The notes beneath the pieces were generated by a model. The model saw only the letters and a list, made by a program, of their open reading frames with translations. It had not been told where the DNA came from and did no database searches. From an uncultured Acidobacteriaceae bacterium (GTDB lineage: Bacteria > Acidobacteriota > Terriglobia > Terriglobales > Acidobacteriaceae): a stretch of 64,000 nucleotides of DNA. The position numbers and the translations under genes were made by a program. This document shows positions 23,115-49,519 of this stretch, one piece after another; the stretch's first letter is position 1, and each line of letters starts with the position of its first letter. The DNA lies in contig CAZQDD010000008.1 of the NCBI GenBank assembly GCA_964591805.1, forward strand, positions 27,667-91,666. Reading direction: 5' to 3'.

Positions 23115-25256
23115 ATGCAGAACTTTACGGTCGCCGACCTGGTGCAGACCACCTTCGCGACGTTGGCCTTCGCTCTATTTCTTCTTCCTCCCGGATATCT
23201 GCTGGGTCTGGCCAGCAACCTTTTCGGCATGCGCAGCCGTTCCGCGGCCGAAAAGATACTGTTCAGCGTGGCGTTTTCCATTGCCGCCACTCCCATCCTG
23301 GCAGTGCTACTGACGCGAATTTCTTCCTACAAGATCACGCTGGCGTTTTTCCTTCTGCTTGCCGTGATCGCCATGGCAAACGTCCTCAGGCAGCTCCCGC
23401 TTCCGGCAGGATTTTTCAGGGGTATTCGGCAGAGCACATGGCTCCTGCTCGGCATGATGCTGGCCTGGTTCCTGGCCGTGCAGTTCGCGCTCGCCGACCT
23501 GCAGATCGGGCATCGTCTCTACATCAGCTTTGTGGCCTTCGATCACTCCGTGCGCCTGCCGCTGGTCGAGGCGGCGGCAAGAGGTGGAATCCCGCCCCGC
23601 AATCCCTTCTACGGCGTAGGGAAAATTCCCGTTCTTCGATATTTCTACTACTGGTATGTCGTGTGTGCCTTGCCGATGCGGCTGGCCGGCCTGAGCGCCA
23701 AAGGTTGCTTCGACGCCAGCGTGTTCTGGAGCGGACTCGGACTCGGGGCCATCATTCCACTTTTCCTGAAGTACTTCCTTGGCGAGACGGAACATCTTCG
23801 CAGAAAATCCGTGATCGGGATCGCGTTGCTTGCGGTGACCGGCCTGGATCTTCTCCCTTATAGTGCAAAGGTCCTGCACCTTCACGCATTGTTCCCCGAC
23901 ATGGAGTGGTGGGACTCAAACCAGGTCACGTCCTGGCTGGGTTCGCTGTTATGGGTGCCGCATCATGTGGCGGCGCTTACGGCCTGCATGGCTGGCCTGC
24001 TCGCGCTCTCCACGGTCGAGGAGGATCACCCGCTGCGACCCAGGGCCTGGGCCGCGGCATTGGCAGGATTGGCCTTTGCCAGCGCCGCCGGCCTCTCGGT
24101 CTACGTGACCTTTACCTTCGCCGTTTTTGCGATTTGCTGGGCGCTGCAGACGCTCCGGCAGAAGAGAATCAAGACCGTTGCCACCTATGTGGCGACGGCT
24201 GCTTTTTCGCTATTGCTCTCATGGCCTTTCCTGCTGGATTTGCTTTTAAATCCGGCGGCTACGGTTGTGGGCTCCTCCCCTGGCGGCGGGCAATTCGCTC
24301 GTTTCGCGATCCGCGATTGTTCCGATGCGCTCCTGCTCCTGGGCCAGTTGGGCCTGCACAACGTCTGGCTGCTCAATCTGGCGAAGCTGCCGGTACTTCT
24401 GATCGTGTACCTCCTCGAGTTCGGATTTTTCGCCCTGATCATGGTGTTGAATCTGCGCAGAGACCGGCGGAACCCGGTTCCGCTGACCAGGCAGCGCCGC
24501 ATGGCGTGGATGATGTTCGTGGTCTGCCTGCTGACAATGAGCATTGCCAAGTCTGACGCGACGAGTCAAAACGACCTGGGGTACAGGGGTATGCTCGTCG
24601 TCCAGTTTGTCCTGCTACTATGGTCGGCACCGCTGCTGCACGATGCTTTCTACCATAAAGGTGCCAGTGCGCCCGTGGGTCCTGAGCCGGCGTGGATCAA
24701 GAGTCTATTGATTTGCACGCTGGTGCTCGGTGTGGCCGGAACCACGTACCAGTTCGTTACGCTGCGCGTTTACGCACCCCTGGCGGACACCGGGAAGTGG
24801 GCGCGTGCGGAAACCTTTCTTGGCGACCCGGGGTTTGGAGAGCGAACCTACTGGATGCGCGAGGGCTTCAGCCGGCTCAACGGACTCACTTCCTCCAGCA
24901 CGTCGGTGCAATACAACCCGGTGCGGGACGAGGCCCTGATCGCCCGTCTGTATTCCACGCGGCAGACGGCTATGGCAGATGCGTTTTGCGGCAGCGCCTT
25001 TGGCGGCGACCTGCAAAAATGCAGGGAGGCGTTTCCGCGCATCGCCTCGGCTTTCAATTCTCCAAGTGCCGCGCACCGCCTGAATCTGGATGGCTTTTGC
25101 GATGACTTCCGGGTGAATGTGCTGGTGGCCACCGATGTGGACCCTGTCTGGCAGGATAAGAGTAGCTGGGTCTGGGCCCGGCCCAGCCTCCTGTCCAACC
25201 CATCGCTGCGCGCAATCCGTTGCGGCACCGCACCTGGTTCTCCCCTCGGGCGATAA
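23115..25256 (+). CDS. Large polytopic membrane protein of unknown function (713 aa)
   Basis: At least 12 hydrophobic segments are followed by a C-terminal soluble region of about 150 aa. I recognise no defining motif. It belongs to the set of large membrane proteins around the cytochrome cluster. Confidence 0.7.
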   Translation: MQNFTVADLVQTTFATLAFALFLLPPGYLLGLASNLFGMRSRSAAEKILFSVAFSIAATPILAVLLTRISSYKITLAFFLLLAVIAMANVLRQLPLPAGFFRGIRQSTWLLLGMMLAWFLAVQFALADLQIGHRLYISFVAFDHSVRLPLVEAAARGGIPPRNPFYGVGKIPVLRYFYYWYVVCALPMRLAGLSAKGCFDASVFWSGLGLGAIIPLFLKYFLGETEHLRRKSVIGIALLAVTGLDLLPYSAKVLHLHALFPDMEWWDSNQVTSWLGSLLWVPHHVAALTACMAGLLALSTVEEDHPLRPRAWAAALAGLAFASAAGLSVYVTFTFAVFAICWALQTLRQKRIKTVATYVATAAFSLLLSWPFLLDLLLNPAATVVGSSPGGGQFARFAIRDCSDALLLLGQLGLHNVWLLNLAKLPVLLIVYLLEFGFFALIMVLNLRRDRRNPVPLTRQRRMAWMMFVVCLLTMSIAKSDATSQNDLGYRGMLVVQFVLLLWSAPLLHDAFYHKGASAPVGPEPAWIKSLLICTLVLGVAGTTYQFVTLRVYAPLADTGKWARAETFLGDPGFGERTYWMREGFSRLNGLTSSSTSVQYNPVRDEALIARLYSTRQTAMADAFCGSAFGGDLQKCREAFPRIASAFNSPSAAHRLNLDGFCDDFRVNVLVATDVDPVWQDKSSWVWARPSLLSNPSLRAIRCGTAPGSPLGR

Positions 25257-25376
25257 ACCGGAAACCGTGAGGCGGGCCGCACCCGGTTGCCATCCGCTGC
25301 GCGGGTTGGCGCGCAATAGAGTCCGGTTGAAACCTTTCATGCGCAATGGGATACTTGAAACGCTTTCGTCGCCATC

Positions 25377-27692
25377 ATGAATTTCCCCGCAGAGAAATCT
25401 TATCGAATTGCCGTTCTGGTCCTTCTCGTTCTGGTGCTGGCAAATGCGCTGGCCGCAGGGCTGCGCACGGTATCGGATTCCGACATGGGCTGGCACCTTG
25501 CCACCGGCAGATACGTTGTCCAGCATCATTCCATCCCCAGCACCGACGTACTTTCCTATACCGCAGCGGGCATGCCGTGGATCTATCCTCCGTTTGCCGG
25601 AGTACTGCTGTACCTGATCTATGGCGCCTTCGGCTACGCGGGACTCAGCTGGTTCTGCGCCCTGGCATGCGGGGCGACGGTGGCGTACCTGGTGCGCAGA
25701 TGTGATCTTGCGTCTATCGTCTTAGCCATGTGCGCCGTGGAGCCGATTGCGTTTCGCACCGGGCCGCGCGCCGACCTGTTCAACACTGTCTTCTTCACCA
25801 TTTTTCTTGGCGTATTGTGGGCGTTCCAGCGGGGGTCCAACAAACGACTGTGGCCGTTGGCGATCACCATGTTCCTCTGGGTCAACGTGCATCCTGGGTT
25901 CATCCTCGGATTGGCCGTGATTGGCGCCTACCTTTTGCTGGAAGCCTGCGAGTTGCCTTTTGCCGGGCGCCGTCCGGCAGCGCTGGAGCGTCTTCGGCAA
26001 GCGTGGCCGTGGCTCGCCGGAACTGTTGCGGTAACCCTGTTAAACCCCTGGGGCTATAGACTTTATTCCGCCTCGTTCACCCTGGCGGGATTGTAAGGTC
26101 AGCAGCAAGGCGCCTTCAACACATCCGCGTTTATCAACGAATTTCTCTCGGTTCCTCTGTCGTCCCATTTGCTGACACAGCTTGTGGATATCAGGCATCC
26201 CGAGAATGGTTTTACCTGGCTGATGCTGGTTGCCATCGTGGTGATTGCCCTGGCATTGTGGCGAACCCAATTCGGCGCGGCGGTAATCCAGGCAGCGGCC
26301 CTCTATCTTGCGGTCGAGCACGCGCGCTACATCGGGCTCTTCTGCGTGACGACCGTGATCGCCGGTGGCACGCTGCTGGGCGAAGCGTTTAGCACCGGTC
26401 CGCCGGAGCCGGGGCCGCAGTTCCGGCCAAAACCTCAACCACTGATTCGCGTGCCGGTGGTCCTAGCGCTGGTTTTCATTTGTGCCATCTGCGCGATCAC
26501 CGTGCTGCACGCGGCCGATTTCATCTCCAACCGTACCCACGTCGTCTTCCGCACCGAGTCTCGTTTTGGCGCCGGCGAAGCATCCTGGTTTCCCGAGCGT
26601 GCCGCCAGTTTCATCCGGCGCGAACGGCTGCCGGGAAACATTTTCGAGGAGTACGGTCTGGGTGGTTTTGCCGCGTGGCGTCTGGGCCCTGAGCACGCAG
26701 ACTTCATCGATGGGCGCTTCGATCACCTGGCCCCCGCGGTGTTGGTAGAAGAGCAGAAGCTTCTGTCGCAGGCGCCCGGCTCGCCAGCCTGGCAGGCTGC
26801 GGCAGACAAGTGGGGCATCAATGTGCTGCTGATTCTGGAGGCGGAGCCCCGGGCCGTTGACCGCGAGGATGCCATGGCTTTCTGCCAGAGCGCAAACTGG
26901 AGTCCGATCTACATGGACGAAATCTCGCTGGTGCTCGTGCGCAATATTCCATCCAACCGGCCCTGGATCGATCGTCTCCAGATCGACTGCCGCATCCAGC
27001 GGCTCGTGCCACCGCCATCGGCTTCGCGTAAAGACCTCTATGACTACTTCGCCAACGCCGGGGGAATGCTTTACGCATTACAACGCGATCATGAATCTGA
27101 GGCGGCGCTGCGGGGTGCCCTGGTTCTTTACCCGGAGGACCCCAACGCAAGATTGGTGCTGGCACAGCTTTACCAACGTCACCAAATGCTGGACAAAGCC
27201 GAGGCCGAATACCGCGCCAGCCTGGCGCTGAGCGAGAGCGATCAGCCCTGGTATGAGCTGGGGCAAATCTATGTGCAGCAAAGGCGCTTGCCTGAAGCCG
27301 GACAGGCATTTGCGCGAGCTGCCCATCTTTCCGTGAATCCGCTGATTCCATACATGGCGCTGGCGCAAGTAGAACTCTGGCAGAAGCATCCCGAAGCGGC
27401 ACTGGAGGCGTTCTCCGGCGCCGAAAGGAGCAGCCCGTACCGCAGCGGAGCGGAATCGCTGGCGCCCGATCTCTATGCGGAGATCGCCGACGGGCGCTCC
27501 GACGCCCAGTTCATGCTTTCCCATCTCTCCCAGGCGATCGAATTTCAGAAGGAAGCCGTGCGGCTCACTCCGTCCGTCGCCAACCGCTGGAACAAGCTCG
27601 CCGATCTCTATGATTCGGCGGGCCAGTCGGATTTGTCCCAGCAGGCGCGAGAGAAAGCGCGAGAGCTGGACCACAACGCGGGTCCACGCTAA
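25377..27692 (+). pseudogene. GT-C-like polytopic membrane protein with a C-terminal TPR domain, interrupted by one in-frame TAA (26094-26096)
   Basis: Track ORFs 25377..26096 and 26169..27692 are in the same frame (both start coordinates divisible by 3), and no other stop lies between them. The joined product (about 771 codons) is colinear with the intact 787-aa paralogue 46844..49207 across the stop: NPWGYRLYS...stop...IRHPENGFTWL aligns with NPWGWRIYS... Confidence 0.7.
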
Positions 27693-28183
27693 ACCGGAAG
27701 TGTCCCGGATCCCCCCTCAGTTGCCAGCCGCTCGCTTGGCCCCATCGAGCGGCTGGGCAAGTGCACCGCAGTGCGGGGGCGGATTCGTGCCATGATCGGG
27801 CGCTGTCCTGCCGGCCCTAATCGCTGGTTTTGATCAGGTCCAGCCTTTCCCGTGCAGCATCCCAAGCGGTGCCTCGTCCCGGCCCGGTCAGGCGACATCA
27901 AAAACGGTAGCAACAATAAGGATGGCGATCCCACACCTCCGGCGCCCTGGAGAGCACCCCGTCGGAGGTGTGGAATATGGCCAATCCCAGCCTTGGACCT
28001 GTGTCAGATTCCTCAACTGACTCCCCAATGGGCGCAAACCATCACCGTTGGAAATATCAACACTTTGAATATCCAGAGGATTATAGTGTTTAGTTTCAAT
28101 AAATTAAGGAGAATGTATGTGCCAGGTCAGTGATGGATTTTGCAACGGCGACACAATTGCACTTTGCTCTGCCGGAGGCAGGA

Positions 28184-29608
28184 GTGGACAGGGCTCTGAG
28201 GGCAATTTCAATCATGGTTCTAGCGAGCGCATTTTCGGCGGCGGCTTGGGCGGGAATCCATCCGGTTCCCCTGGATCCCAAGCAGGATCCCGCGACCTGC
28301 GCTCAATGCCATGAGGACAAAACGAAGGGCAAGTCGGTCCATTCGGCAATTGCCATGGGCTGTACCAGCTGCCACGAGATCAGAGTAAACAGGGACGTTA
28401 CCCGCACAAAACTCCTCACTACCACTACCGTAGCCCTTTGCATCACCTGCCACGCCGACAAGAAAGCTGCTGACATCAAGGGGAAAATTCATCCTCCGGC
28501 GGTGCGCGACTGTGTGAAGTGCCACGACCCGCACACCTCCGACAACAAAAACCAGCTGCTCAAACCCGAAAGTGGAGACACAAAGGATACGAATCTTTGT
28601 TTGAGCTGCCACAAGATCGGGCTCGACGTCCCGAAAGATGGCAGCCGTCACGCCGCGCTGGATATGGGCTGCGACACCTGCCACGTAACCCACAAGACCG
28701 GCGAGCGCGGCAAGCGCGAATTCGACTTTCACCTGACCAAGGATGCGCCGGCGCTCTGCATCGATTGTCACGACCCGAAAGATGCGGCACTCGTCAAGGC
28801 GCACCAGGGACAGCCGTTTGAGAAGGCGGATTGTCTCTCCTGTCACGATCCGCACCAGTCCACCAGCAAGAAGCTGATGGCGAAGTTCACTCACGTGCCG
28901 TTTGCCGGTGGCCAGTGTGATTCCTGCCACGCCCCGGCCAAGGACGGCAAGGTGGTGCTGATCGCGGCGACGACGAAGGAAATTTGCCTGACCTGCCACT
29001 CCGATAAGGGCGAACAGATTGAGAAGGCGAAAGTGCAGCATCCGGGTGCAGCGGGCGATTGCACCGACTGCCACAGTCCGCATGCCGGCAACTCTCCAGG
29101 GTTCCCAAGGCCGAATCCGGTCGCCGTCTGTTTGACCTGCCATACCGAGCAGGCCGAGCAGGGGAAAAAGGCGCACGTTCACCAGCCGGCGTTCGAGCAA
29201 GGTTGCGCTACCTGTCATGAGCCGCACGGCGGTGATAACTTGCACCTGTTGCGCGCCAAGACTCCGAACGCCCTTTGCCTGGAGTGCCACGGTCCGGATA
29301 CCGAGCCGCCCGCCAAGCTGCAGGGTGAGCACATGGTTACCATCTTCGGCGGCAAGGTGAAGCTGCCGGATACGTATTTCGACAAAGTCGTGGTGCTGCC
29401 AATCCGCTATGGCCTCGGCCATCCCGTGAATGGTCACCCGGTCTCTGACTTGATGGATCCGACAGATGTCACCAAGGTTAAGACTCCGTTGTCGTGCTTG
29501 AGCTGCCATCAGCCGCACTCTTCGGCTCACGCCGACCTGTTGATAAAGGATGAGCAGAACAATATGGAGTTTTGCGACAACTGCCACAAGAACAGATTCA
29601 AGATGTAG
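28184..29608 (+). CDS. Periplasmic multihaem c-type cytochrome, 16 CxxCH motifs
   Basis: Sixteen CxxCH motifs were counted, many as CxxCHxPH. The proposed GTG start at 28184 is preceded by GGAGG (28174-28178). It gives the signal peptide (M)DRALRAISIMVLASAFSAAAWA-G. The track start is 28130. Confidence 0.85.
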   Translation: MDRALRAISIMVLASAFSAAAWAGIHPVPLDPKQDPATCAQCHEDKTKGKSVHSAIAMGCTSCHEIRVNRDVTRTKLLTTTTVALCITCHADKKAADIKGKIHPPAVRDCVKCHDPHTSDNKNQLLKPESGDTKDTNLCLSCHKIGLDVPKDGSRHAALDMGCDTCHVTHKTGERGKREFDFHLTKDAPALCIDCHDPKDAALVKAHQGQPFEKADCLSCHDPHQSTSKKLMAKFTHVPFAGGQCDSCHAPAKDGKVVLIAATTKEICLTCHSDKGEQIEKAKVQHPGAAGDCTDCHSPHAGNSPGFPRPNPVAVCLTCHTEQAEQGKKAHVHQPAFEQGCATCHEPHGGDNLHLLRAKTPNALCLECHGPDTEPPAKLQGEHMVTIFGGKVKLPDTYFDKVVVLPIRYGLGHPVNGHPVSDLMDPTDVTKVKTPLSCLSCHQPHSSAHADLLIKDEQNNMEFCDNCHKNRFKM

Positions 29609-29635
29609 TGCAAGTTTGCGGTGGAGAACAGAGAG

Positions 29636-30988
29636 ATGTTCGCAGTTCCTCTAAATTCGGTTCGCGGTGGCAAGTGGATCGCTCTCGCGCTGCTTCTGTC
29701 CGTCGCCCTAGCCGCACCATCGGCGGCTCACGGTGACAAGAAGAAGAAGAACGCCACTGCGCCCACGCCGAGCGCCCCGGCCAAGCCCAATGATTTCTCA
29801 GCGCTGGTCTGGCCCCAGCCTCCCGACATCATCCGGGTCCGCTACGTGGACTACTTCGCCGGGATGAAGTTCGACCGCACCGATGCGGTTGTGGTGAAGA
29901 AGAAGCAAAGCTGGATGGACCGCATGGCAGGTACTCCAGAGGGATCCGAGAGACAGGAAAAAATGCTCAAGGACTTCCCTTACCAGCTGATCGGGCCTTA
30001 CGGGGTCGCCGCCGATTCCAAGGGCCTTGTGTATGTGGCGGATCAGAAAGTGGGCGCGGTCTTCATCTTTAATACGGAAACCAGGGATGTGCAGCTGATT
30101 GCCAACGGCAAAGACGCTCACTTCGAGTGGATCAACGGCATTGCGATTGACGACAACGATCGCGTCTTTGTCTCTGACGGCAAGCTGGCTCACGTTCTGG
30201 TTTTCAACGCCAAGCATCAGATCGAGGGCCAGATCAGGGAAGGCCTGGTGAATCCGAACGGGTTGGCCATCGATACGGAAAATCGTCTTCTGTACGTGGT
30301 AGACACCCAGCAGGATCAGGTTCTGGTGTATGACCCCGACACCTACAAATTGCTGAGGCGGATGGGTACAGGCGGTAAAAAGCATGCCCTGACTACGCCT
30401 GGAGATTTTGCCGCGCCAACCAACGTGGCGGTCGATGCGGATGGGAATGTTTACGTAACGGACACGCTGAATGACCGCGTGGAGATTTTCGATGCGGACG
30501 GCAACTTCGTCAGCACCTTTGGCAAGAATTGTGACTCACCAGGCTGCTTTGAGCGGCCCAAGGGAATTGCCATTGACTCCGACGGGCACATCTGGGTTGC
30601 TGACGCCATGATGGATCGTTTGCAGGTCTTCAACCGCGAGGGCCAGGTGCTTCTGCCTATCGGCTCGCATGGAAACCTGCCCAGCCAGTTCGACTCGCTG
30701 GTGGGAGTAGCGTTCGACAAGACGAAGAAACGGATTCTCACTACTGAGCAGTACCCGGGCCGGATGCAGGTGTTCCGGTATGTAACCGACGCGGAAGCGG
30801 ATGCCGATCGGCAGCGCCAGGCAGAGGAGCGCAAACAGAAGTATGCAGGCGCGCAAGTGCCGTCTCCAGCCGGCAGCGCGGCGGCAAAGCCGGGAGAAGC
30901 GCCGGCGGTGAAGCCGCCCGAAGCAGGCGTACCGCAGCCGGCCGCGACGCCCGCGCAGGTTAGCGCACAAGGATCCGCGGCGAAGTGA
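29636..30988 (+). CDS. NHL-repeat six-bladed beta-propeller protein with a signal peptide and a C-terminal Ala/Pro-rich tail
   Basis: Six repeats of the type P.G.A.D..G..YV.D....R...F are present. Examples are YGVAADSKGLVYVADQK, NGIAIDDNDRVFVSDG, TNVAVDADGNVYVTDTLNDRVEIFD and PKGIAIDSDGHIWVADAMMDRLQVFN. The N-terminal signal is WIALALLLSVALAAPSAAHG. Confidence 0.8.
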   Translation: MFAVPLNSVRGGKWIALALLLSVALAAPSAAHGDKKKKNATAPTPSAPAKPNDFSALVWPQPPDIIRVRYVDYFAGMKFDRTDAVVVKKKQSWMDRMAGTPEGSERQEKMLKDFPYQLIGPYGVAADSKGLVYVADQKVGAVFIFNTETRDVQLIANGKDAHFEWINGIAIDDNDRVFVSDGKLAHVLVFNAKHQIEGQIREGLVNPNGLAIDTENRLLYVVDTQQDQVLVYDPDTYKLLRRMGTGGKKHALTTPGDFAAPTNVAVDADGNVYVTDTLNDRVEIFDADGNFVSTFGKNCDSPGCFERPKGIAIDSDGHIWVADAMMDRLQVFNREGQVLLPIGSHGNLPSQFDSLVGVAFDKTKKRILTTEQYPGRMQVFRYVTDAEADADRQRQAEERKQKYAGAQVPSPAGSAAAKPGEAPAVKPPEAGVPQPAATPAQVSAQGSAAK

Positions 30989-31110
30989 GCCGCGACAAGT
31001 TTGGGGGCCAAAGGCCGCCGAAACGGAGAGACGAACGACCGCTCCTCCGGAAGCTGTAAACACTGAAGAGATTTAAGGCTCTTCACTATTACCAGGAGGT
31101 TTCACCTTTT

Positions 31111-31986
31111 ATGAAAAAGTTCATGCTCGTCCTCGTTGTCCTCGCCCTTGGCACATTCGTCATGGCGCAAATTGGTGTGCCCACGGGTGACGTTCTGGGC
31201 GCCCACTTGAACTACGGCCGTGGTTGCGCGGCTTGCCACTCACCGCACGGCGGTCAGGCTGGTAACGGCGCGGCCCACACTCAGACTGTCGCAAACTCGT
31301 ACCTCTGGGGCCAGGACACCACTGCCCTGCTAGGTCAGACCATCACGTTCAGCGGCAACACCGTTGAAGTTCTGCCTGCCACTCTTGCTGCCGGTTCGCC
31401 TGACGTCAGCGGCCTCCTGATGTGCCTTAGCTGCCATGACGGCAACTATGCCACTGGCGCCATGATGAAGAACGCGATTTATGAGACCGTGCCGCTAACC
31501 AAGTACGGAGCCAACACGATTCCTACCCTGATGGGCAATGAAGGCGCCCTCGGTGTTGGAGCCGGAAGCTACCTTGCCAACCACCCGGTGGGTCTGAATG
31601 CCACCGTCTCCTGCGGCGGACAGTACAACTGGGATTGCGTCCAGGCTGCCAACGGCACCATCTCGATGACCGGCACCAACTCGGCGCAGTTCGTCAAGGA
31701 CTATGGCTTCTTCGTCTCTCTGTCGGCCTATAACAACACTGCGGTCGTCACCTGCACGAGCTGCCACAACCAGCACTTGATGAACATTGTTTCGGTCACC
31801 AACGGCGCGAAGTCCGGTCTGCCGACTGGCTACTATCAGACCATGTTCTTCATTCGCGCGCCCTACAATGGCGCCAACAGCAGCAACGTAGCGTCGAACC
31901 AGAACGCCCAATTCTGCCGCCAGTGCCACGGTGGCGAAGCGAACGAATCGAACGGCGCCGGCGCGACGATCCCAACCACGTTCTAA
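31111..31986 (+). CDS. Small secreted tetrahaem c-type cytochrome (291 aa)
   Basis: AGGAGG ribosome-binding site and signal peptide MKKFMLVLVVLALGTFVMAQ. The four CxxCH motifs are CAACH, CLSCH, CTSCH and CRQCH. Five further His residues are available as distal ligands. The N-terminal 130 aa are colinear with the N-terminus of the 12-haem protein 36283..38217. Confidence 0.85.
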   Translation: MKKFMLVLVVLALGTFVMAQIGVPTGDVLGAHLNYGRGCAACHSPHGGQAGNGAAHTQTVANSYLWGQDTTALLGQTITFSGNTVEVLPATLAAGSPDVSGLLMCLSCHDGNYATGAMMKNAIYETVPLTKYGANTIPTLMGNEGALGVGAGSYLANHPVGLNATVSCGGQYNWDCVQAANGTISMTGTNSAQFVKDYGFFVSLSAYNNTAVVTCTSCHNQHLMNIVSVTNGAKSGLPTGYYQTMFFIRAPYNGANSSNVASNQNAQFCRQCHGGEANESNGAGATIPTTF

Positions 31987-32002
31987 ATTTGTTGCCTTAC
32001 CA

Positions 32003-32040
32003 GGGGGAGAGAAGTTCTCTCCCCCTTACTTTTGTGTTTG
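32003..32040 (+). terminator. Strong rho-independent terminator directly after the tetrahaem cytochrome gene
   Basis: gggggagagaa (32003-32013) pairs with ttctctccccc (32015-32025), followed by ttacttttgtgttt. It starts 17 nt after the stop codon. Confidence 0.8.
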
Positions 32041-32053
32041 CCAGCGAGGGATC

Positions 32054-33076: not shown

Positions 33077-33283
33077 TTCCATCGCGCGCAGCCTGTGGCG
33101 GAATTCCGGCTGGCTCCGGGTACGGCCGCAGGGAATGGTATTTCAGCCGTGAACGCCATCGGCCCAGGAGCAGCATGGAATCGGGAGCCACTGCGCCATA
33201 TCGCGCAATCCAAGATAGATGCAGACCGCTGCAGAGTGTTAGTATTAACCGATATTTCAACTACTTAGGGATGAGTACAGCGT

Positions 33284-33299
33284 TGGTCTTCTAATTGCT
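33284..33299 (+). promoter_or_regulatory. Candidate sigma-54 (-24/-12) promoter: TGGTCT-N5-TTGCT
   Basis: GG at 33285-33286 and GC at 33297-33298 have the canonical spacing. It lies 35-60 nt upstream of the possible barrel start codons in a 256-nt intergenic region. The -24 half is weak (TGG only). Confidence 0.4.
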
Positions 33300-33332
33300 C
33301 TATCACCGTGTGGTTCTCATTTCGCCACCCCG

Positions 33333-41541: not shown

Positions 41542-43431
41542 TTATTGTCTGCCGGAACCTTCCGCGTCGGGCCGCACGAAGACATAGACTGGGTCTCCGA
41601 ACGGATACAATCTGAATACCTGTACGAATTTGTATTTCCTTGCCAACACTTCGACCGCAGCAATAATATCCCGTTGACCGCTGCGCTTCCCATGGCGCCA
41701 GTACGATTCGTTCGCGCGCAGGAATTCCTCCGGTGTCGGCCCGTATATAAGCACTGCCGGCCGTACTCGGAGCAACCTCTCAGCTTCCTCCTTCGCGAAC
41801 GAGTCGGGAACAACGTCAAAGTTATGCGAACTGGAGAACGTTGCAGGTCTGCGTTCCGTCGCACCATAAAAAAATCCAAGTTCCGGATAAATAAAGATTG
41901 TGTCCGCCGGGGTGGAGTTTTCCCGAATGATGCGAATGGTCGAATCGGCGAATTCGATGGTGTTCGCCGGAAGCAAGAATCCCCGTAACTCTGGGAGCGA
42001 CGACTTCATGGTCGCAATCTTCACGGTAGGCTCTTGCCAACCGTTAAACCCGAACGGCACTCTCTCCTTGAACTGGGTTTCGCAGCAAAGCAGCGCACCG
42101 CAAACTGCATAGACAACCCATCGCCGCCAGTTATCGAAATCATTTAAAAGCACTGCTAAAAACAGTCCCAGCCCCGGAATTGTCATGGCTTCAAATGCCG
42201 GATACGAAAGCGAAGTCATGAACGCGACAATGAAAGCAACGGACGCAATCAGGGCGAACTGTGATTGCCTTCTCGAGATGTTTCCGCTCAGGTAACGCCA
42301 GAAGTAATAAGCGATCAGCAGGCCACTTCCGATAAGCGAAATATATATGGTTGGCTTTGCAGCCAGGTCCGGCCTGAATGGGAGAGGCTGCATGGATGAG
42401 GCTCCGATGATACCTAGCCCAAGCAGCAATACCAGTAGAATTCCCTTCAGTGAATCTGTGTCCGTATCCTTCTTTTCTTTGTCCTCGGACCTGCGCAGAG
42501 CTCCCCAGCAGATTACCAGTACAACCAATGCAATCAACGCCGCCCACCAATAGTCCCTCAGGGTCACAATGGTATGCGCGAGGAAGTCACCGGGATGCGC
42601 CGCCTTGGCTGCGGGGCCGGTAATAAAGGCCTGCGTCAGAAATGCGCGAAGGATGCCGAAGTGCACCATCCAGCCAAGCAAGACGGCCGCCGCGAGTGAC
42701 CAACCGGCGGTAAATCCCGCCAGAAACCTTAATGCCTTTTGAGCGCTTTCCAGCCTAACCAGGCAGAGACCCAGAACAAACGGAATTGCCAGAGTCACGC
42801 CTAGCCCTATGGTTTGCTTCGCGGCGAGGCACAGCAGAGAAATAATTCCCGCCAAACACCCGATTGCCGCCACGGCACGCTTGGTTCGCCCGGCATCGAG
42901 CGCATAACTCGCAGCGAACCCATCGGCAATTGCCAGCATGATCGTAAAATGGTTATAGGAGCTCACCGGATCCGCGTAGTCGCCCGCCGAAACCACCATG
43001 GTGACGATCGCGGCCCATGCCGCATCCTTAACGCGAAAGAAACGGACCAGCCAGCCGTACAACAGCAGAGAAAGAATCACTCGCTCAAAAACAGCGTAGC
43101 CCCTCAGTACGATTGGCAGCTTTCCGAAAATAGCAAGCACCGCCGCACAGCGAGCCACCCACAAGGGAGGGACCGGAACATAATAATCTCTGTACGGAAG
43201 GATTCCCTTCAGAAAGAATACTGCGCCCGTGAAGCCGCCATCCCCCGATCTGAGTCCAAGGAAGCGGTTCCAGAAAAGCAGGAAAAAGCAAAGTGTCACC
43301 GAGGCGGTAACCAACGCGCCTGCTATGGCGGTTCTTCCTTTCGAGGAGTGCGAAGCGCTGGAGTCAATTCCCGGATCTGTGACCCGAGCGAATGGGGCTT
43401 GCTCTTCGTTTCTCTGCGGGAAACTGCTCAT
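41542..43431 (-). CDS. Polytopic membrane protein, probable GT-C-fold glycosyltransferase (PMT_2/ArnT-like)
   Basis: 629 aa with more than 12 TM segments. GILPYRDYYVPVPPLW resembles the PYRDF...PPL block I recall from bacterial PMT_2-type proteins. The C-terminal soluble domain is about 170 aa. Confidence 0.55.
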   Translation of the reverse strand: MSSFPQRNEEQAPFARVTDPGIDSSASHSSKGRTAIAGALVTASVTLCFFLLFWNRFLGLRSGDGGFTGAVFFLKGILPYRDYYVPVPPLWVARCAAVLAIFGKLPIVLRGYAVFERVILSLLLYGWLVRFFRVKDAAWAAIVTMVVSAGDYADPVSSYNHFTIMLAIADGFAASYALDAGRTKRAVAAIGCLAGIISLLCLAAKQTIGLGVTLAIPFVLGLCLVRLESAQKALRFLAGFTAGWSLAAAVLLGWMVHFGILRAFLTQAFITGPAAKAAHPGDFLAHTIVTLRDYWWAALIALVVLVICWGALRRSEDKEKKDTDTDSLKGILLVLLLGLGIIGASSMQPLPFRPDLAAKPTIYISLIGSGLLIAYYFWRYLSGNISRRQSQFALIASVAFIVAFMTSLSYPAFEAMTIPGLGLFLAVLLNDFDNWRRWVVYAVCGALLCCETQFKERVPFGFNGWQEPTVKIATMKSSLPELRGFLLPANTIEFADSTIRIIRENSTPADTIFIYPELGFFYGATERRPATFSSSHNFDVVPDSFAKEEAERLLRVRPAVLIYGPTPEEFLRANESYWRHGKRSGQRDIIAAVEVLARKYKFVQVFRLYPFGDPVYVFVRPDAEGSGRQ

Positions 43432-43584: not shown

Positions 43585-45117
43585 TTAGTTGTCTTTGCTT
43601 TCGTGGTAATCCGGTTCGGTATTCACATCCCAGATGTTTCGCTTGTCGATGCGGCCAGAGATGATATTGTCCACGGCCGTCATCGCCGTCAGCATCGAGT
43701 GGTCCTGGTTGTTGTACTTGTGCATGCCATTGCGGCCTACCATGTACAAATTTGAGATCGCATCGACGTACTCACGTACTTCCTGGAAGCGGCCATAGAG
43801 ACCAAAATATGCCGGGTAGGTCTTGGCCATGTGGATCACCACGGCGTCTCGCACATCGCAGCGCTCGATGATGTCAATTTTTGCCAACTCGTCGGCAGCC
43901 AGGCTCGCCATGCTCTCCTCCGGGCGCGTCCATAACTCGTCACCCTCATAGCAGAAGTACTCGGCGCCCAGCCAGACTTTTGATGGGTCGGCCACCAAAA
44001 ACGGGCTCCAATTGTTGAAGACCTGCAGCCGGCCCACGAGCACATCGGGTTCCTGTATATAGATCCAGTTGTCTGCAACCAACTGTCCCGGTTTGCCGCC
44101 CGGATCGCGCACCTTCAGCCTATCTACCAGCAGACCCACGGCGATAAAATCCCGATACTGCAGATTCTCCGCCACCTCGCGCACATTCGCCGGCACGCGG
44201 CTGCCGCCTTCCACCATGGCCTGCACCAACTCTTTCACCGACGTGGTGGAGAAAAAATAGTCGCCCGTGAAGCGGCGCTCGGTGCCGTCGGAGGCGCGCC
44301 CGCTTACGGCCACGATGCGTCCATCTTCCACCTCCACGGATGTGACGTTGAAGTTGGTGATGACCTCGCCGCCCATCTTCAGCACGCGCCCGGCGACTTT
44401 CTCCCACATCTGTCCCGGCCCGAACTTGGGATACAGGAACTGTTCGATCAGCGAGGTTTCGGTGCCCTTCTGGGCGATGTCTCCCGGCTTGCCGGATGGC
44501 TTCAGAAAATGCGCAATGGCCTTGCGGATGGAAAGACCCTTGATGCGCTGCGCGCCCCACTCCGCGCTGATCTTGTTGCACGGAACGCCCCAGACTTTTT
44601 CAGTGTAGGACTTGAAGAACGTGAGATAGAGTTCACGCCCAAAGCGGTTGATGAAAAACTGCTCCAGGTTCTCTACCTTGCGGATGGGAAATAGCGCGGA
44701 ACGCAGGTAGCTGAAGCCGATGCGCACGGTGCGGGCCGGGCCCAGATTCTTCAGGGTCGCCTTGCTGAGCTGGATGGGATACTCGAAGAGCTTTCGCAGA
44801 AAATAGATGCGCGACTTACGGCCTCGCACCAGCATGATGTCGTCCTGCTTCTCCGACTCGCCGGGCGTCTCCCGCGGCAACTGTTCCAGCCACCAGTCCA
44901 TGACGCGGTCGCTCTTGGAAAAGAAACGGTGACCGCCAATATCCATGCGATTACCCTTGTACCGCACGGTGCGCGAGATGCCGCCCATGTAGTCAAAGCG
45001 CTCGAGGACGATGGGGCGGATGCCTGTCCGGGTAAGCAGTTCGTAGGCCGCAGTCAATCCCGCAGGGCCCGCGCCGATGATGACTGCAGTTGGTTGTTCC
45101 ACGTTGATACCGCGCAT
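43585..45117 (-). CDS. NAD(P)/FAD-dependent oxidoreductase (amine-oxidase / UDP-galactopyranose-mutase-like fold)
   Basis: [17 protein letters not shown] is a dinucleotide-binding GxGxxG motif, followed by MGGISRT...[11 protein letters not shown]. At 510 aa it is the first gene of a minus-strand operon with the two GT-C-like genes. Confidence 0.7.
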
Positions 45118-45325
45118 CCCAAATAGTATAAGAATGATTGCAAGGTAAAACTATACCAGCTCCCACACCCTGGAAATGATTTCTGTCCCATCTTGCCTGG
45201 CTAAGGCATCGGTGACATGGACCAGGTCCAGACCTTGGCGCCACGCGGACACCCGCCGCCCTCTCGGCGGCGCAAGGTCCGGCGTTTTCTCCCGTAGGGT
45301 CTTGGATAGCGAGGTGTTCCAGATC

Positions 45326-46807
45326 ATGAGTGTTCTTCAGGAGATACGCGAACTGCTTCGAAAACGTCTCTTGCAGTTGCTCACTCTAGCCGCACTGATG
45401 GCCGGGCTGGGAGGGTATTGCTTCACCCTCAAGTACTGCGTTCTTGACCTCGATCTCTGGTGGCATCTCGGAGTTGGCAATTGGATACTCCAACATCATT
45501 GCGTCCCTCGAACAGGAATCCTTTCGCATACTGCGGCCAGCCGTCCGTGGGTGGCCTATAGCTGGGGATATGAAGTGCTGCTCTCGCTCACCTATCGATG
45601 GTTTGGGCTTCTCGGAGTTGGCCTCCTCGGTGTGTTGCTGACCCTCTTAGTGGCCGGTTGCGTGTACTGGATGCTGCATCGGCTCTCCGGCCGCTTCTGG
45701 GTGGCAACCCCGCTTGCCGTCGTCACCTGTTGGGCGTTTCTCTTTTCCCTGATGCCCAGGCCGGTGTTCTTTTCCATGGTCCTATTCATGGTCACACTTA
45801 CCCTGATTCTGGAAGCTCAGCGCAGCGGCAGGGTGCAAACGCTTTACTGGCTGCCGCTCATCTTTGCACTGTGGGCGAACGTTCACATCCAGTTTATCTA
45901 CGGACTTTTTCTGCTTGGCCTGTTCGTCGCGGTCAACCTGCTGCAACGCCTGGCGGACAGGCTGGCGGTCACGCCCACGTTTGTTCTGCGCCCGTCGCTT
46001 GCGCTCAAACCGTTGGCCGCAATCTTCGCCATTTGCCTCCTGGCCACCTGCATCGGGCCGTACTCGTTTCACCTGTACCAGGTGATCTTCGAGTACTCAA
46101 AGTCCAAGCTTCCCTACGAGATGATCAGGGAGTTGCAACCACTCAATTTTCGCTTTGGCGCTCATTACGCACAGCTCCTATTGGCCGCTGCGGGGTTCTT
46201 CGCCGTCGGATATCAGAAGAGACTGGACCCTTTCAAGTTGGCCCTGCTGATCATTGCCAGCGTCGTCGCCTTCCGCACCATGCGCGATTCCTGGTTCCTC
46301 TGTATTCCGGCAGCGGCCTGCATCGCCGATTTTCCGGTTGAAGACGCCCGCCGCGATCCGGCGGAAACTCCCGTTGAATTGGCCGGCTTGGCGGCCGTCG
46401 TCTTCGTGTTGTTACTGCTGTTCGCGCACAACACCGACTTCAACACCCGCGGCCTTGATGCGGCGATCAGCAGCCAGTTTCCGGTGCGGGCCGTTAACTT
46501 CCTGAGGCAAAATCCTCCCCCGGGGCCGCTCTACAACGATCTTAACTTCGGCGGCTTTCTTATCTGGTACATGCCGGATTATCCAGTGGCGATCGACGGA
46601 CGCAACGACCTCTACGGAGACGAGTTGGATCACAGGTTTTTCAGCTCGGCGAACGGGAACAAATCCTATGCGAGCGATCCTTACCTGAACCAGGCAGGCG
46701 TGGTGCTGCTGGGTAAGGACGTACCCCTGGTCAATCTCTTGAAGATCGACCCGCGTTTCACAATCATCTACGAAGATCGCATCGCCGCGGTTTTTGTCCG
46801 CAGGTAG
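45326..46807 (+). CDS. Polytopic membrane protein, GT-C-like paralogue family (short form)
   Basis: Motifs are LDLDLWWHLGVGNWILQHHCVP and NDLNFGGFLIWYMPDYPVAIDGRNDLYGD. It is colinear with 38375..39901. I trimmed the track ORF (45176) to the ATG at 45326 (MSVLQEIREL...). Confidence 0.75.
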   Translation: MSVLQEIRELLRKRLLQLLTLAALMAGLGGYCFTLKYCVLDLDLWWHLGVGNWILQHHCVPRTGILSHTAASRPWVAYSWGYEVLLSLTYRWFGLLGVGLLGVLLTLLVAGCVYWMLHRLSGRFWVATPLAVVTCWAFLFSLMPRPVFFSMVLFMVTLTLILEAQRSGRVQTLYWLPLIFALWANVHIQFIYGLFLLGLFVAVNLLQRLADRLAVTPTFVLRPSLALKPLAAIFAICLLATCIGPYSFHLYQVIFEYSKSKLPYEMIRELQPLNFRFGAHYAQLLLAAAGFFAVGYQKRLDPFKLALLIIASVVAFRTMRDSWFLCIPAAACIADFPVEDARRDPAETPVELAGLAAVVFVLLLLFAHNTDFNTRGLDAAISSQFPVRAVNFLRQNPPPGPLYNDLNFGGFLIWYMPDYPVAIDGRNDLYGDELDHRFFSSANGNKSYASDPYLNQAGVVLLGKDVPLVNLLKIDPRFTIIYEDRIAAVFVRR

Positions 46808-46843
46808 AGTCCAGATTGTCCGGAGCCTCGCCGCCTGGAATAT

Positions 46844-49174
46844 TCAACGCAAGTTCGATTTCACCTGGCCTTCGCCAAGCTTCGCCGCATTTTCGCGCGC
46901 TCGTTGCGCATCTTCGATTCGGCCTTCAGACTCGTACAACTGGGCGAGTTCAAACCAATCGTCGGCGCGATCGGGAGCAAGCCGCACCACATCTTCTTCG
47001 AACACGATTGCCTGCCTGGAGTTCCGGAGACCGATCCAGGCCATTGCCCTGCCGTGGGCAAGGTTGGCATAGAAAGACTTGTTTTGTTCTATTCCAGCGG
47101 GAGCAACGTCAAGTGCGCGATCGAATGCCTTCAGCGCTTCCTGGGGGCGCTGTTCACCAAGATAGTCGTACCCAATGGAAAGCAGACTCGAGTACCGGTC
47201 TGAGGCCAGATCAGCGACATGTTCCCAAGCTACGATGGCCTCGCCCAACCTTCCTTCCCTCTCATACATCTCCGCCAAAGCTGTCCAAACAGGAGCCTTT
47301 GGGGTGAGCGCTGCCGCCAGGAGATATTCCGATTCCGCAGCACGCGCGTTTCCGGTTTCGGCAAACAGGTTGCCGCGCAGAAAGTGTAGGTAAGAGCTGT
47401 CTGGAAAGATGGCTAACGCACTTGTTGTTGCCGTAAAGGCCTCTGACCTGCGTCCCAAGGCAGACAAAACAGAGGCGGCGTTCGCCCACTGATTAAAGGC
47501 TTTGCTGCCGGACTGCGCAGGGATGACCGCCGGCAAAGGTGCGGTGCCGCAATCGACCTGAGCGCGCTGAATAAGCCCCTCGGTCTCGGGCGCCCGCCGG
47601 ACAAAAACCGCGGAGACTTCGTCCAGATAAACCGGCCGCCAGGTTTCACTTGCGCAGAACTGGCGAAGAACCGGAAAGAACTGCAACGCATCGTATCGTC
47701 CCAGGGGAACGATGATGGCGTACATTCCATAATGCTCTGCTTCATTTTGCCAGGCGGGCGAAGCCGGCAAAGATCCCAGCAGATCACCGCTTCGCCGCAC
47801 CAGTTCCATCCCAAAAGGATCGCCGCGCCCGTCAACATAGTCACGGTGTTTGGGCCCGAGTCTCCACGCAATATAGCCGCCCTCGTCGTAGCTGTTGAAG
47901 ATCTGTTCTGGAATGTTTTCCCGCTCTATGAAAGACGCAGCGCCCTCGGGAAACCACCAGGACAGTCCGGTTCCGAACGATGCCAGGTTGGTGTCCATCA
48001 GGTAAGTCCGGTCAGAAATCACGTCGGCCGACCATGCACATGTGAACACAACGGCGAGGCAACACAATCCAACCTTGAGGATCACCTTGATGCGTGAATC
48101 GCGGATCGCGTTCTGCCAGGTACGCCAGGCCGATGTCAGCACGGCGCTCCCGATCACGACCAGGACCACGCTGAACAAGGCCTGAAACCGCACATGACGA
48201 ATCCCGAGAAAAGCTGCGCCGCCGAGCAGCAAGGCTGGTCCAGGTTGCCGGCGCAATAATGCCAGGGGAATGGCAAAAGCAGCCACCAATAGCAGCAAAA
48301 GAAAACTGTCGGGATTGCGTGGGGACAGCCCGGCGAGAACGCTGGTCCAGTTCAAATTCGCCGGAGCCCATTCGGCGATGGAGATGGCCGCAGACTGAGT
48401 CGTCATAGGAGCCATGAACCCGAGCATTTGTGAGTAGATCCGCCAGCCCCACGGGTTAACAAAAGTCGCGGCGAATGTGGCCACCAGCCACGGCCACGAG
48501 CTTCGCAGCCGGTGCCGCGCAGCTTGGCGCCGTTCGGGCCACACCATGTCAAAGCATTCGAGCAGAACGTATCCGCCCAGTAGCGCCAATCCTGCGGCAA
48601 GCCCCAGGTGCAAGTTGACCCATGCGATCATCAGGGCCGGCAAAAGCCACAGGCGGGCCCGCCCGCTCTCATGCTGCTGCCAAATCAAGCTCAGAAAAGT
48701 GGCAAATAGCAGCAGCGTAAACATATCGGCTCGAGGGTTTGTGTGTACCGCAATCAGTGGGACTGCCAGAATCGCTAATCCAACGCTGATCAGTGAACCC
48801 CGCCGCAGCAAGAGGGCAACAGTCCCGGCGCAGACCACAGCTCCAAGCCAAGACAACAACGAATATCCGCCCAGGAGATAGAGAGCATAAAAGAACAATG
48901 CAGAGCCAACCGGATAAATCCAGGGCTGGCCTTGGGCTGTGTACGAGAGCACGTCCGTCGCGGGGATCTGGTGGTGTTGAGCAATCCATCTCCCGGTTGC
49001 CAACTGCCAGCCGAGGTCATATTGGGTAAGGGTCCGCAGACCCGTCAGCAACGCGTAACCCAGCGCAACCACGCAGAGCAGAAGGTGCAGGTTCCGGTCC
49101 AGGGGAAGACCCTGCGGGCTCGCCGCAGCCGAACTGTTGTGCCCGGTCAGGATTTGCTCTGAAGTTGTTTCCAT
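46844..49174 (-). CDS. Polytopic membrane protein with a C-terminal TPR domain, GT-C-like paralogue family (long form, intact)
   Basis: Motifs are QYDLGWQLATGRWIAQHHQIPATDVLSYT and FNSYDEGGYIAWRLGPKHRDYVDGRGDPFG. The C-terminal 250 aa or so are TPR-like. It is the full-length counterpart of the interrupted 25377..27692. The start is at 49174 (METTSEQ) or 49207. Confidence 0.75.
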   Translation of the reverse strand: METTSEQILTGHNSSAAASPQGLPLDRNLHLLLCVVALGYALLTGLRTLTQYDLGWQLATGRWIAQHHQIPATDVLSYTAQGQPWIYPVGSALFFYALYLLGGYSLLSWLGAVVCAGTVALLLRRGSLISVGLAILAVPLIAVHTNPRADMFTLLLFATFLSLIWQQHESGRARLWLLPALMIAWVNLHLGLAAGLALLGGYVLLECFDMVWPERRQAARHRLRSSWPWLVATFAATFVNPWGWRIYSQMLGFMAPMTTQSAAISIAEWAPANLNWTSVLAGLSPRNPDSFLLLLLVAAFAIPLALLRRQPGPALLLGGAAFLGIRHVRFQALFSVVLVVIGSAVLTSAWRTWQNAIRDSRIKVILKVGLCCLAVVFTCAWSADVISDRTYLMDTNLASFGTGLSWWFPEGAASFIERENIPEQIFNSYDEGGYIAWRLGPKHRDYVDGRGDPFGMELVRRSGDLLGSLPASPAWQNEAEHYGMYAIIVPLGRYDALQFFPVLRQFCASETWRPVYLDEVSAVFVRRAPETEGLIQRAQVDCGTAPLPAVIPAQSGSKAFNQWANAASVLSALGRRSEAFTATTSALAIFPDSSYLHFLRGNLFAETGNARAAESEYLLAAALTPKAPVWTALAEMYEREGRLGEAIVAWEHVADLASDRYSSLLSIGYDYLGEQRPQEALKAFDRALDVAPAGIEQNKSFYANLAHGRAMAWIGLRNSRQAIVFEEDVVRLAPDRADDWFELAQLYESEGRIEDAQRARENAAKLGEGQVKSNLR

Positions 49175-49519
49175 GTTTTCCACAACGCGCAGAATAATTC
49201 CAAACAATAAGCAGCCTTGCTGCCAAACACAAACGCCGCCGCCAACTTCCGGTGGAGTTCCTATCTTCAGTAGTTTACGACGAATCGCGGGATTAACCTG
49301 TTGGCTGCGGCCAATCCTTCTGCGGCGGCTCGCGCGGTTCTCAAGGAACTTTGGCTCATGTCAATCACCCAGCGGCGCAACTCGACCTTTGGGGCATCTC
49401 GCGCACAGGCTGCGCTAGAAGCCGTAAAATCCGGCGTCGCAGTCTGCTCGTCCCCGGACACGCTTCACGTATGTTATTCATAACATGAGACTAGAAGTGT
49501 TCTTTTTGAGCAGCGCCTT

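Follow-up and report, generated by a model that had tools for sequence, protein, structure and literature searches.

Orphan membrane proteins of GT-C fold beside an OmcE-type cytochrome cluster of Acidobacteriaceae as candidate nanowire glycosyltransferases

Surface glycosylation has been reported for OmcS filaments, and "extensive" glycosylation, seen by cryo-electron microscopy (cryo-EM), for those of OmcE (PMC9473688). In the Desulfuromonadia most omcE clusters are followed by genes for glycosyltransferases of families GT2, GT4 and GT39, for sugar modification and for tetratricopeptide repeat (TPR) proteins, and the species without such genes makes an unglycosylated OmcE (bioRxiv 10.1101/2025.10.22.684050). 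The enzyme that glycosylates OmcS or OmcE is named neither in that study nor in PMC9473688. The locus described here lies in a stretch of 64,000 nucleotides (hereafter the window), positions 27,667 to 91,666 of contig CAZQDD010000008.1, from an uncultured Acidobacteriaceae bacterium of peat. It contains a cluster of multihaem cytochrome genes accompanied by four paralogous polytopic membrane proteins, two short forms designated FS1 and FS2 and two long forms bearing TPR repeats. These paralogues, for which a model of FS1 predicts the fold of the GT-C glycosyltransferase superfamily, are the best candidates so far as the enzymes that decorate such nanowires, or their envelope, with sugars. Insulation, bundling and secretion are possible roles of the nanowire sugars.

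The closest described clusters are those of Geobacter and Geomonas (bioRxiv 10.1101/2025.10.22.684050), in which the same core of two multihaem cytochromes, two propellers, OmcE and a large barrel is followed by GT-C-class enzymes (assigned there to GT39) and TPR proteins, OmcE being glycosylated in those species that have such genes. The acidobacterial locus differs from them in phylum, the Acidobacteriota being outside the five phyla listed in that study, and in its extent: 15-70 GT2, GT4 and GT39 genes there stand against a compact and strongly syntenic set of orphan GT-C genes here, with a core devoid of exporters and cytoplasmic glycosyltransferases. The core of the window also appears to match EET1, a porin-scaffold-cytochrome cluster of peat Terriglobales/UBA7540, in its OmcE-like multihaem cytochrome and its origin in peat (Fiorito et al. 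2026, bioRxiv 10.64898/2026.05.27.727921); the words "glycosyl" and "tetratricopeptide" do not occur in the main text of that paper. A similar logic is found in the osc (OmcS companion) cluster of Geobacter, which employs the peptidyl-prolyl isomerase (PPIase) OscH in folding and OscE/F/G in secretion (Shen et al. 2025, cited in PMC13194489).

The cytochrome cluster of the window occupies positions 28130-38217 on the plus strand. It starts with a 16-haem cytochrome, MHCa (28130-29608; Paired_CXXCH_1, E 3e-67; 16 CXXCH motifs), followed by a first beta-propeller protein with NHL repeats (29621-30988; Pfam NHL, E 8e-25), a tetrahaem cytochrome of 291 amino acids with a signal peptide and four CXXCH motifs (31111-31986), and a SurA-like periplasmic PPIase with Rotamase_2 and SurA_N domains (32054-33076; the open reading frame (ORF) runs from 31931, and the public gene call gives 340 amino acids). 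Next comes a protein of 623 amino acids without a Pfam match (33333-35204), a putative outer-membrane beta-barrel judging from its size, its position and its C-terminal Phe (...RWFNFF); its place corresponds to that of the "large beta-barrel" of the OmcE clusters (bioRxiv 10.1101/2025.10.22.684050). The order is completed by a second NHL propeller (35186-36286; NHL, E 3e-25; DUF5128, E 7e-26) and an 11-haem cytochrome, MHCb (36283-38217; Pfam matches; 11 CXXCH motifs), which stands immediately 5' of FS1.

It was the tetrahaem protein that related the cluster to nanowires. As a single sequence it matched nothing in the PDB, and only the profile built from 21 orthologues revealed its relationship to OmcE: this profile matched entry 9YUQ, the OmcE filament (nanowire) of Desulfuromonas soudanensis, with E 1.6e-9 over residues 1-217 of 218. 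The orthologues mostly contain four CXXCH motifs and eight His residues, as expected for a tetrahaem OmcE with bis-His ligation, and related loci (L004/L011 and L079) carry two or three OmcE-like copies in tandem. By the gene content used to define such clusters (bioRxiv 10.1101/2025.10.22.684050) the cluster is of the OmcE type, the barrel being putative, and the protein at 31111-31986 is a candidate nanowire subunit and a candidate acceptor of glycosylation. The five N-x-S/T sequons of this protein are about the number expected from its composition, rich in N, S and T, and were discarded as evidence.

The gene order was compared among related genomes. One genome per GTDB species was scanned with the short-form alignment, which gave 453 relatives, and the best 80 loci were examined; with this alignment as query the set is biased toward FS1 orthologues. 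Almost all of these loci belong to Terriglobales, Acidobacteriaceae, Korobacteraceae and Sulfotelmatobacter metagenome-assembled genomes from peat and soil. The conserved order, as traced by tblastn, is MHCa, NHL propeller, OmcE-like protein, PPIase, barrel, NHL propeller, MHCb, FS1, FS2 (usually convergent) and a small membrane-anchored TPR protein. The 11-haem cytochrome was found within 10 kb upstream of FS1 in 60 of the 66 loci whose sequence extends at least 9 kb in that direction; in 52 of these it stands directly upstream on the same strand, and in one locus (L005) the start of FS1 overlaps the stop of the cytochrome gene. Downstream of FS1, 53 of 63 loci have an FS2 orthologue at a distance of no more than 10 kb, as a rule in convergent orientation, and a homologue of the small TPR protein follows FS2 in 38 of 63, often as a tandem pair. 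The remaining genes of the neighbourhood are variable: the oxidoreductase at 43585 was found in 18 of these 63 loci, the membrane protein at 39986 in 16, that at 23115 and a long form in 7 each, and that at 41542 in 2. Of three long-form homologues sampled (about 60% identity), two adjoin the same cluster (L088, L089).

FS1 and FS2 are thus tightly tied to the OmcE-type nanowire cluster as its dedicated accessory genes. The co-occurrence with multihaem cytochromes that the initial annotation had proposed to test holds for both short subfamilies, while the family at large is also found away from cytochromes; a presence irrespective of cytochrome genes, which that annotation had named as grounds for giving up the idea, is in part observed for the whole family of about 34,000 clusters described below and is not observed for the two short subfamilies.

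FS1 (38375-39901, plus strand) consists of 508 amino acids, the public gene calls starting at 38393, and FS2 (45326-46807, plus strand) of 493 amino acids counted from the ATG, the public call using a TTG at 45302. One long form (46844-49207, minus strand) has 787 amino acids, comprising a GT-C-like membrane domain, a C-terminal domain predicted to be periplasmic and then TPR repeats; the other lies at 25377-27692 on the plus strand. The peptides quoted in the initial annotation were all recovered from the ORF listing and its translations. The block in the first loop reads SDSDMGWHLATGRYVVQHHSIP in the protein at 25377, ADADVWWHLRTGIWILQNHAVP in FS1 (38375), LDLDLWWHLGVGNWILQHHCVP in FS2 (45326) and QYDLGWQLATGRWIAQHHQIP in the long form at 46844 on the minus strand, and the C-terminal block is exemplified by WGGFLTWYLPGYPVAIDGRRD and EGGYIAWRLGPKHRDYVDGRGD. 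The proposal that the four are paralogues was borne out by pairwise BLASTP comparison, with E-values from 3e-149 to 4e-10. The two long forms are 38% identical over 761 amino acids (E 3e-149) and the two short forms 37% identical (E 3e-95), the comparisons between long and short forms giving E 6e-23 to 4e-10. In a MAFFT alignment the four proteins are collinear from end to end with 52 invariant columns.

The division into two long forms with TPR and two short forms also stands, Pfam TPR_2 being matched in the former (E 5e-11 and 4e-13) and TPR being absent from the latter; what requires correction is that the long form at 25377 is not a single ORF. It is interrupted by an in-frame TAA codon (26094-26096), which leaves products of 239 (25377-26096) and 507 (26169-27692) amino acids, and the 38% identity to the other long form continues across this codon. 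The identical 239-residue product was found on 16 contigs from independent peat metagenomes, and because it recurs in this way the TAA is considered a real nonsense mutation or split gene, not an assembly error. The gene at 25377-27692 is therefore a probable pseudogene or a split gene in the population.

The initial annotation had called for a structural comparison of the family with GT-C enzymes. The AlphaFold2 model of FS1, obtained from an alignment of 56 sequences (predicted local distance difference test (pLDDT) 84.8; predicted template modelling score (pTM) 0.84), shows a membrane part of 11 transmembrane helices and, at the C-terminus, a small alpha/beta domain. When it was compared with the PDB by Foldseek, 24 significant matches were obtained, all of them GT-C enzymes: DPY19, STT3/OST (oligosaccharyltransferase), AftA, ArnT, PglB and AglB, with E 6.7e-7 to 4.8e-4, probability 1.0 and template modelling scores (TM-scores) of 0.43-0.55. 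Below these stood EmbA/B/C at weak E-values and then transporter noise at a TM-score of about 0.1. Transporters and O-antigen ligases, either of which would have spoken against the GT-C assignment, did not rise above noise in this search; Wzy_C and transporter models gave no match in Pfam, and in the Foldseek searches of FS1 and of the protein at 39986 transporters appeared only at E > 0.3 and a TM-score of about 0.1.

The cytoplasmic loops predicted for FS1 (131-137, 178-184, 226-230 and 306-310) are rich in Arg, and therefore, by the positive-inside rule, the N-terminus would be cytoplasmic and both the first loop and the C-terminal domain would face the periplasm. Across 14 short and 8 long forms the residues D58, H73, R285, D438, R440 and D498 (FS1) are invariant in the alignment, G439 between D438 and R440 being nearly so. 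The first-loop Asp, D438 and R440 remain invariant in 36 much more divergent representatives, in which R285, at the predicted periplasmic start of transmembrane helix 8, is nearly invariant; rare substitutions by Glu or other residues were seen at the position of D58. The D-x-D motif that the initial annotation recognised in the first loop holds for its second Asp, which is the invariant one, and not for its first position, which varies (D, N, G, S or Q), although FS2 orthologues retain the full motif in nearly all cases. We take the invariant Asp to occupy the position of the catalytic base of ArnT, PglB and PMT. As a separate observation, the FS1 orthologues of L014 and L041 (about 10001-11460), two loci without cytochromes, have Glu in place of the first-loop Asp (...LGGLEVWSH...), so that the acidic character is kept.

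DPY19, STT3/PglB/AglB, AftA and ArnT resemble the family in fold, in a multi-pass domain with a cytoplasmic N-terminus, in a first-loop acid followed by juxtamembrane helices and in a soluble domain after the last transmembrane helix. The family differs from them in having no sequence match to them in Pfam, NCBIfam or the PDB, in a motif set of its own (x-D-x-W-W-H-L-x-T-G-x-W; N-x-Y-x-W-G-G-F; I-D-G-R-x-D), in the absence of WWDYG and in 11 predicted transmembrane helices against 13 in PglB, ArnT and DPY19. Each known family was considered in turn. The STT3 (GT66) model gave no match in Pfam or NCBIfam, the family profile matched no PDB sequence, and in place of WWDYG the corresponding stretch reads W-Y-L-P-G-Y-P-V in the short and W-R-L-G-P in the long forms. 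A reading of the C-terminal "W..GYPV.IDGR" as a degenerate OST "WWDYGYPV...DG" was rejected; a profile of the domain finds no OST in the PDB, its best matches being a collagenase and an epoxide hydrolase at E > 0.4. DPY19 is the best structural match (7zli, E 6.7e-7, TM-score 0.55), yet the identity is 12% and the Dpy19 (GT98) model is not matched in Pfam.

Protein O-mannosyltransferases with TPR repeats are known among GT-C enzymes, for instance TMTC1-4, and it is with these and with bacterial PMT_2-TPR proteins that the long forms, and only the long forms, share an architecture, in which extracytoplasmic TPR repeats come after a membrane domain of GT-C type. They differ in lacking a match to the PMT (GT39), PMT_2 (GT83) or DUF1736 models or to MIR domains, which were matched neither in the window proteins nor in 36 relatives, and in possessing an additional alpha/beta domain, which carries the DGR motif and separates the TPR repeats from the membrane domain. 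The short forms differ from TMTC in having no TPR and in being accompanied by separate small membrane-anchored TPR genes. The PMT/PMT_2 models do work in these genomes, because a separate protein of 742 amino acids (L088:5815-8043) gives a weak match to them. Superposition on GT-C enzymes and a conserved first-loop acid were found, but neither the models of STT3, PMT/PMT_2/TMTC and DPY19 nor the WWDYG motif of STT3 were matched, and the paralogues are most fittingly regarded as a new family of the GT-C superfamily.

It was found that this family is very large. When 1.84 billion representatives were scanned in full with HMMER, 34,272 clusters (at 50% identity) were returned with E <= 1e-3 and 9,000 with E <= 1e-30. 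The initial annotation placed it in no named Pfam family; in the scans the membrane domains of all seven large membrane proteins of the window were without a match in Pfam or NCBIfam, where TPR alone was detected. Among 36 sampled divergent members none matched Pfam on the membrane domain. The 457 relatives found by homologue search with the short form are all labelled "hypothetical" and have no Pfam domain, and the long-form homologues of 46844, at least 1,656 in number, are annotated solely through their repeats, as "TPR repeat protein".

The best explanation, which we hold with somewhat less than even confidence, is that the GT-C-fold paralogues are periplasm-facing glycosyltransferases of the inner membrane that use polyprenyl-phosphate sugars and modify a secreted product of the cluster. 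The extracytoplasmic glycosylation suggested in the initial annotation is supported to this extent. A GtrB/ArnC-type synthase would charge undecaprenyl phosphate with a sugar and the lipid would then be flipped. FS1 and FS2, together with the TPR-bearing long forms, would transfer the sugar at the periplasmic face to the secreted product, once Sec export and the attachment of haem are complete and before its passage through the barrel. The OmcE-like subunit would be the most likely acceptor, the alternatives being the propeller lipoproteins and the other surface cytochromes; the TPR domains and small membrane-anchored TPR proteins may hold the protein substrate. Because FS1 and FS2 recur as a pair, they may form a heterodimer, as do Pmt1-Pmt2 or EmbA-EmbB, or perform two sequential steps. 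It is tempting, if doubtful, to go further and to regard FS1 and FS2 as a dedicated, possibly heterodimeric glycosyltransferase of the OmcE subunit, and the family of about 34,000 clusters as a new and general class of bacterial enzymes that glycosylate proteins and pair with TPR modules for different secreted substrates such as cytochromes and beta-propellers.

Several observations weigh against periplasmic glycosylation of a cluster product. The similarity of FS1 to GT-C enzymes is one of fold only, with a root-mean-square deviation of 11-14 Å, 11-15% identity and TM-scores of 0.43-0.55; transferase activity and the use of polyprenyl-phosphate donors are inferred for the family as a whole. 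The cluster contains no flippase and no GT2 or GT4 gene. The GtrB-like gene of the window (10632-11636) lies about 16 kb upstream of the cytochromes, with unrelated genes between, and neither it nor the epimerase and thiamine pyrophosphate (TPP)-dependent enzyme genes beside it were found in the 10-kb flanks of the related loci, a weak result in that on the upstream side these flanks reach no farther than the interior of the cytochrome cluster. In six of the 66 loci, one of them from the isolate Granulicella sp. S156, FS1 occurs (mostly together with FS2) without cytochromes within 10 kb, and the distant members P0439 and P0413 stand in other genomic contexts. The long form at 25377 is broken by a stop codon, which suggests that not every copy is needed. 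To these points are added the existence of non-catalytic folds of GT-C type and the nature of some accessory genes, which bear on the alternatives considered next.

The accessory genes are a NodU-type carbamoyltransferase with DUF5989, an AlgX-like protein, a GDSL/SGNH-TPR protein, an MBOAT protein with an AMP-binding enzyme and the PMT/PMT_2-like protein of 742 amino acids mentioned above; they were seen at L004:13060-17829, L006:12987-17138, L087:12676-15955 and L088:5815-8043. They vary among the relatives, and all of them are of kinds usual in glycan modification. MBOAT, AlgX-like, carbamoyltransferase and SGNH/GDSL proteins are of a type that modifies polysaccharides rather than proteins, and they would suit active GT-C enzymes whose acceptor is not a protein: a lipid-linked glycan, an exopolysaccharide, lipopolysaccharide or another envelope glycoconjugate that anchors, insulates or accommodates the nanowire or conduit. 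The Xap polysaccharide of Geobacter, which anchors cytochromes, offers an analogy. Lipids or glycans are the substrates of many GT-C enzymes, and ArnT, AftA, AftB, EmbA-C, PimE and ALG proteins are among the best structural matches; moreover, several distinct GT-C families in one locus recall the arabinan or lipid-linked oligosaccharide pathways, and family members exist without cytochromes. The conserved core, for its part, is without a polysaccharide polymerase, an exporter (Wzx/Wzy/Wza or ABC type), an initiating transferase or a cytoplasmic glycosyltransferase, and FS1, FS2 and the TPR unit stand directly behind the gene of a secreted cytochrome, TPR repeats binding proteins more often. 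The reported glycosylation, furthermore, is that of the OmcE filaments themselves (PMC9473688). A glycan acceptor is accordingly judged unlikely, if well short of negligible.

The small membrane-anchored TPR proteins bracket the locus. One is encoded at 22264-22977 (plus strand), with a CcmH/CycH-like TPR region in Pfam, and the second, also recognised by Pfam, at 49676-50332 (plus strand), in the conserved position after FS2 or the long form. Their TPR domains and those of the long forms match PF23914, the model of CcmH/CycH apocytochrome chaperones, weakly (E 6e-8 to 3e-4, below the cut-off). Directly beyond lie ResB and CcsA of the System II pathway of cytochrome c maturation (50658-53686, plus strand; Pfam ResB, E 1e-88; Cytochrom_C_asm, E 2e-49); the omcE region of the Desulfuromonadia is likewise described as flanked by resB/ccsB. 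These neighbours suit another role, in which a GT-C-like fold serves without glycosyltransferase activity in the inner membrane, as a platform or chaperone where apocytochromes are handled, haem is loaded or subunits are handed over to a secretion machine of propellers and barrel, its TPR repeats binding the unfolded cytochrome in the manner of CcmI/CycH. Non-catalytic subunits of this fold exist, PIG-U, one of them, being among the weak Foldseek matches of the 39986 protein, and the cluster has no conserved gene for donor synthesis. On the other side, the invariant residues are those expected for catalysis, namely the first-loop acid and the Arg/Asp pairs predicted to face the periplasm; the pattern extends over about 34,000 clusters, some of whose members lie far from any cytochrome, and the same locus holds a second, unrelated GT-C protein (39986) with a D-E motif in its first loop. 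A platform or chaperone thus appears improbable.

A third alternative keeps the glycosyltransferase activity and changes the protein that receives the sugar. The acceptors would be the NHL or other propeller lipoproteins, or the barrel, the family would in general glycosylate secreted propellers, and the link to cytochromes would be secondary. In almost all loci the second gene upstream of FS1 does encode a propeller. In L087, the locus of the third of the sampled long-form homologues, tandem long forms stand next to an NHL protein of 1,091 amino acids, an MBOAT gene and the flavin adenine dinucleotide (FAD) enzyme, without cytochromes; an NHL protein of 1,126 amino acids is found near the genes of L004. 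P0413 (L095:1-12495, contig_54290, ERZ25039489) follows three genes for Kelch propellers of 700-730 amino acids and overlaps a separate TPR gene at the latter's start, with no cytochromes nearby; this context hints at possible further secreted substrates of the family. These contexts are few and anecdotal, propellers are common in Acidobacteria, and the published evidence of glycosylation concerns the OmcE and OmcS filaments, so that little weight is given to this proposal.

Seven large polytopic membrane proteins had been noted between 23115 and 49207, and the ORF listing and translation confirm the number. Besides the four paralogues there are three, encoded at 23115-25256, 39986-41488 and 41542-43431, which BLASTP related neither to the family nor to each other. 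In profile-profile comparison with hhalign, likewise, the families of the paralogues, of 39986 and of 23115 showed no relationship to one another. The protein at 39986-41488 (minus strand, 500 amino acids) is an accessory gene product whose AlphaFold2 model (pLDDT 89, pTM 0.89) also has a GT-C fold: Foldseek gave ArnT (E 6.5e-5) and ALG9 (4.9e-4), then AftA, STT3, AftB, ALG3 and PimE. Its first loop contains the invariant residues H47, W50, D52, E53, R61 and D62 (H-x-x-W-x-D-E...R-D), so that superposition on GT-C enzymes and a conserved first-loop acid were found for this protein as for FS1. Its 507 relatives are labelled "hypothetical" and lack Pfam domains. On the strength of the model it is a second, unrelated orphan family of GT-C fold in the locus.

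The other two are orphans as well. The protein at 41542-43431 (minus strand, 629 amino acids), searched as a single sequence, has no match in Pfam, NCBIfam or the sequences of the PDB, and that at 23115-25256 (plus strand, 713 amino acids) none in Pfam or the PDB, also when its profile was used against the latter. Pfam scans of the homologue sets of 39986 and 23115 gave no meaningful match, and the 39986 profile found nothing in the PDB. Between these genes and FS2 lies a FAD/NAD(P)-dependent oxidoreductase of the PRK07208 family (43585-45117, minus strand; NCBIfam NF005546, 789 bits), amine-oxidase-like and distantly similar to UDP-galactopyranose mutase (TIGR00031, E 1.4e-7), which possibly is a sugar-modifying accessory enzyme.

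A possible source of donor is found at 10632-14435 on the minus strand, where a GtrB/ArnC-type GT2, a NAD-dependent epimerase/dehydratase and a TPP-dependent enzyme stand in a row; from their similarities they are a candidate module for a lipid-linked modified sugar. The GT2 (10632-11636, minus strand; Pfam Glycos_transf_2) has two C-terminal transmembrane helices and matches over its full length, in the PDB, GtrB (5EKP, E 2.5e-44), ArnC (5e-31) and DPMS (1e-12). It may be the maker of the lipid-linked donor, its link to the cluster being weak.

Some further features of the window were recorded. The gene at 20688-22100, just upstream of the locus, encodes 470 amino acids with an N-terminus resembling a signal peptide and a weak match to CheR-type S-adenosylmethionine-dependent methyltransferases (E 5.5e-4, below the cut-off); it also precedes the TPR and 23115 genes on the independent contigs L090, L092 and L093. 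Downstream, the segment 50658-58195 encodes, after ResB and CcsA, a HAMP histidine kinase, a sigma-54-dependent response regulator and HemA. Near the end of the window (61575-63917, minus strand) lies a protein of 780 amino acids rich in Gly, Thr, Ser and Ala. It has a hydrophobic segment at the N-terminus, matches nothing in Pfam and has the look of a secreted fibrous or adhesin-like protein.

As to what had been described before, glycosylation genes beside omcE clusters are already published for another phylum, and the acidobacterial cytochrome cluster was published in 2026 without the genes considered here. New are the orphan GT-C pair strongly syntenic with the OmcE-type cluster, the second orphan GT-C family, the size of the unannotated family and the reproducible nonsense mutation. 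The analysis flags a very large family of GT-C fold that has no model in Pfam or NCBIfam and whose members are labelled "hypothetical" or "TPR repeat protein". Clusters of the EET1 type are reported to be transcribed deep in peat and may influence the balance of CO2 and CH4 (bioRxiv 10.64898/2026.05.27.727921). The homology to OmcE places an OmcE-type nanowire cluster in the Acidobacteriota, and the locus, with two orphan GT-C genes behind that cluster in abundant Acidobacteria of peat and soil, is a compact candidate for nanowire glycosylation.

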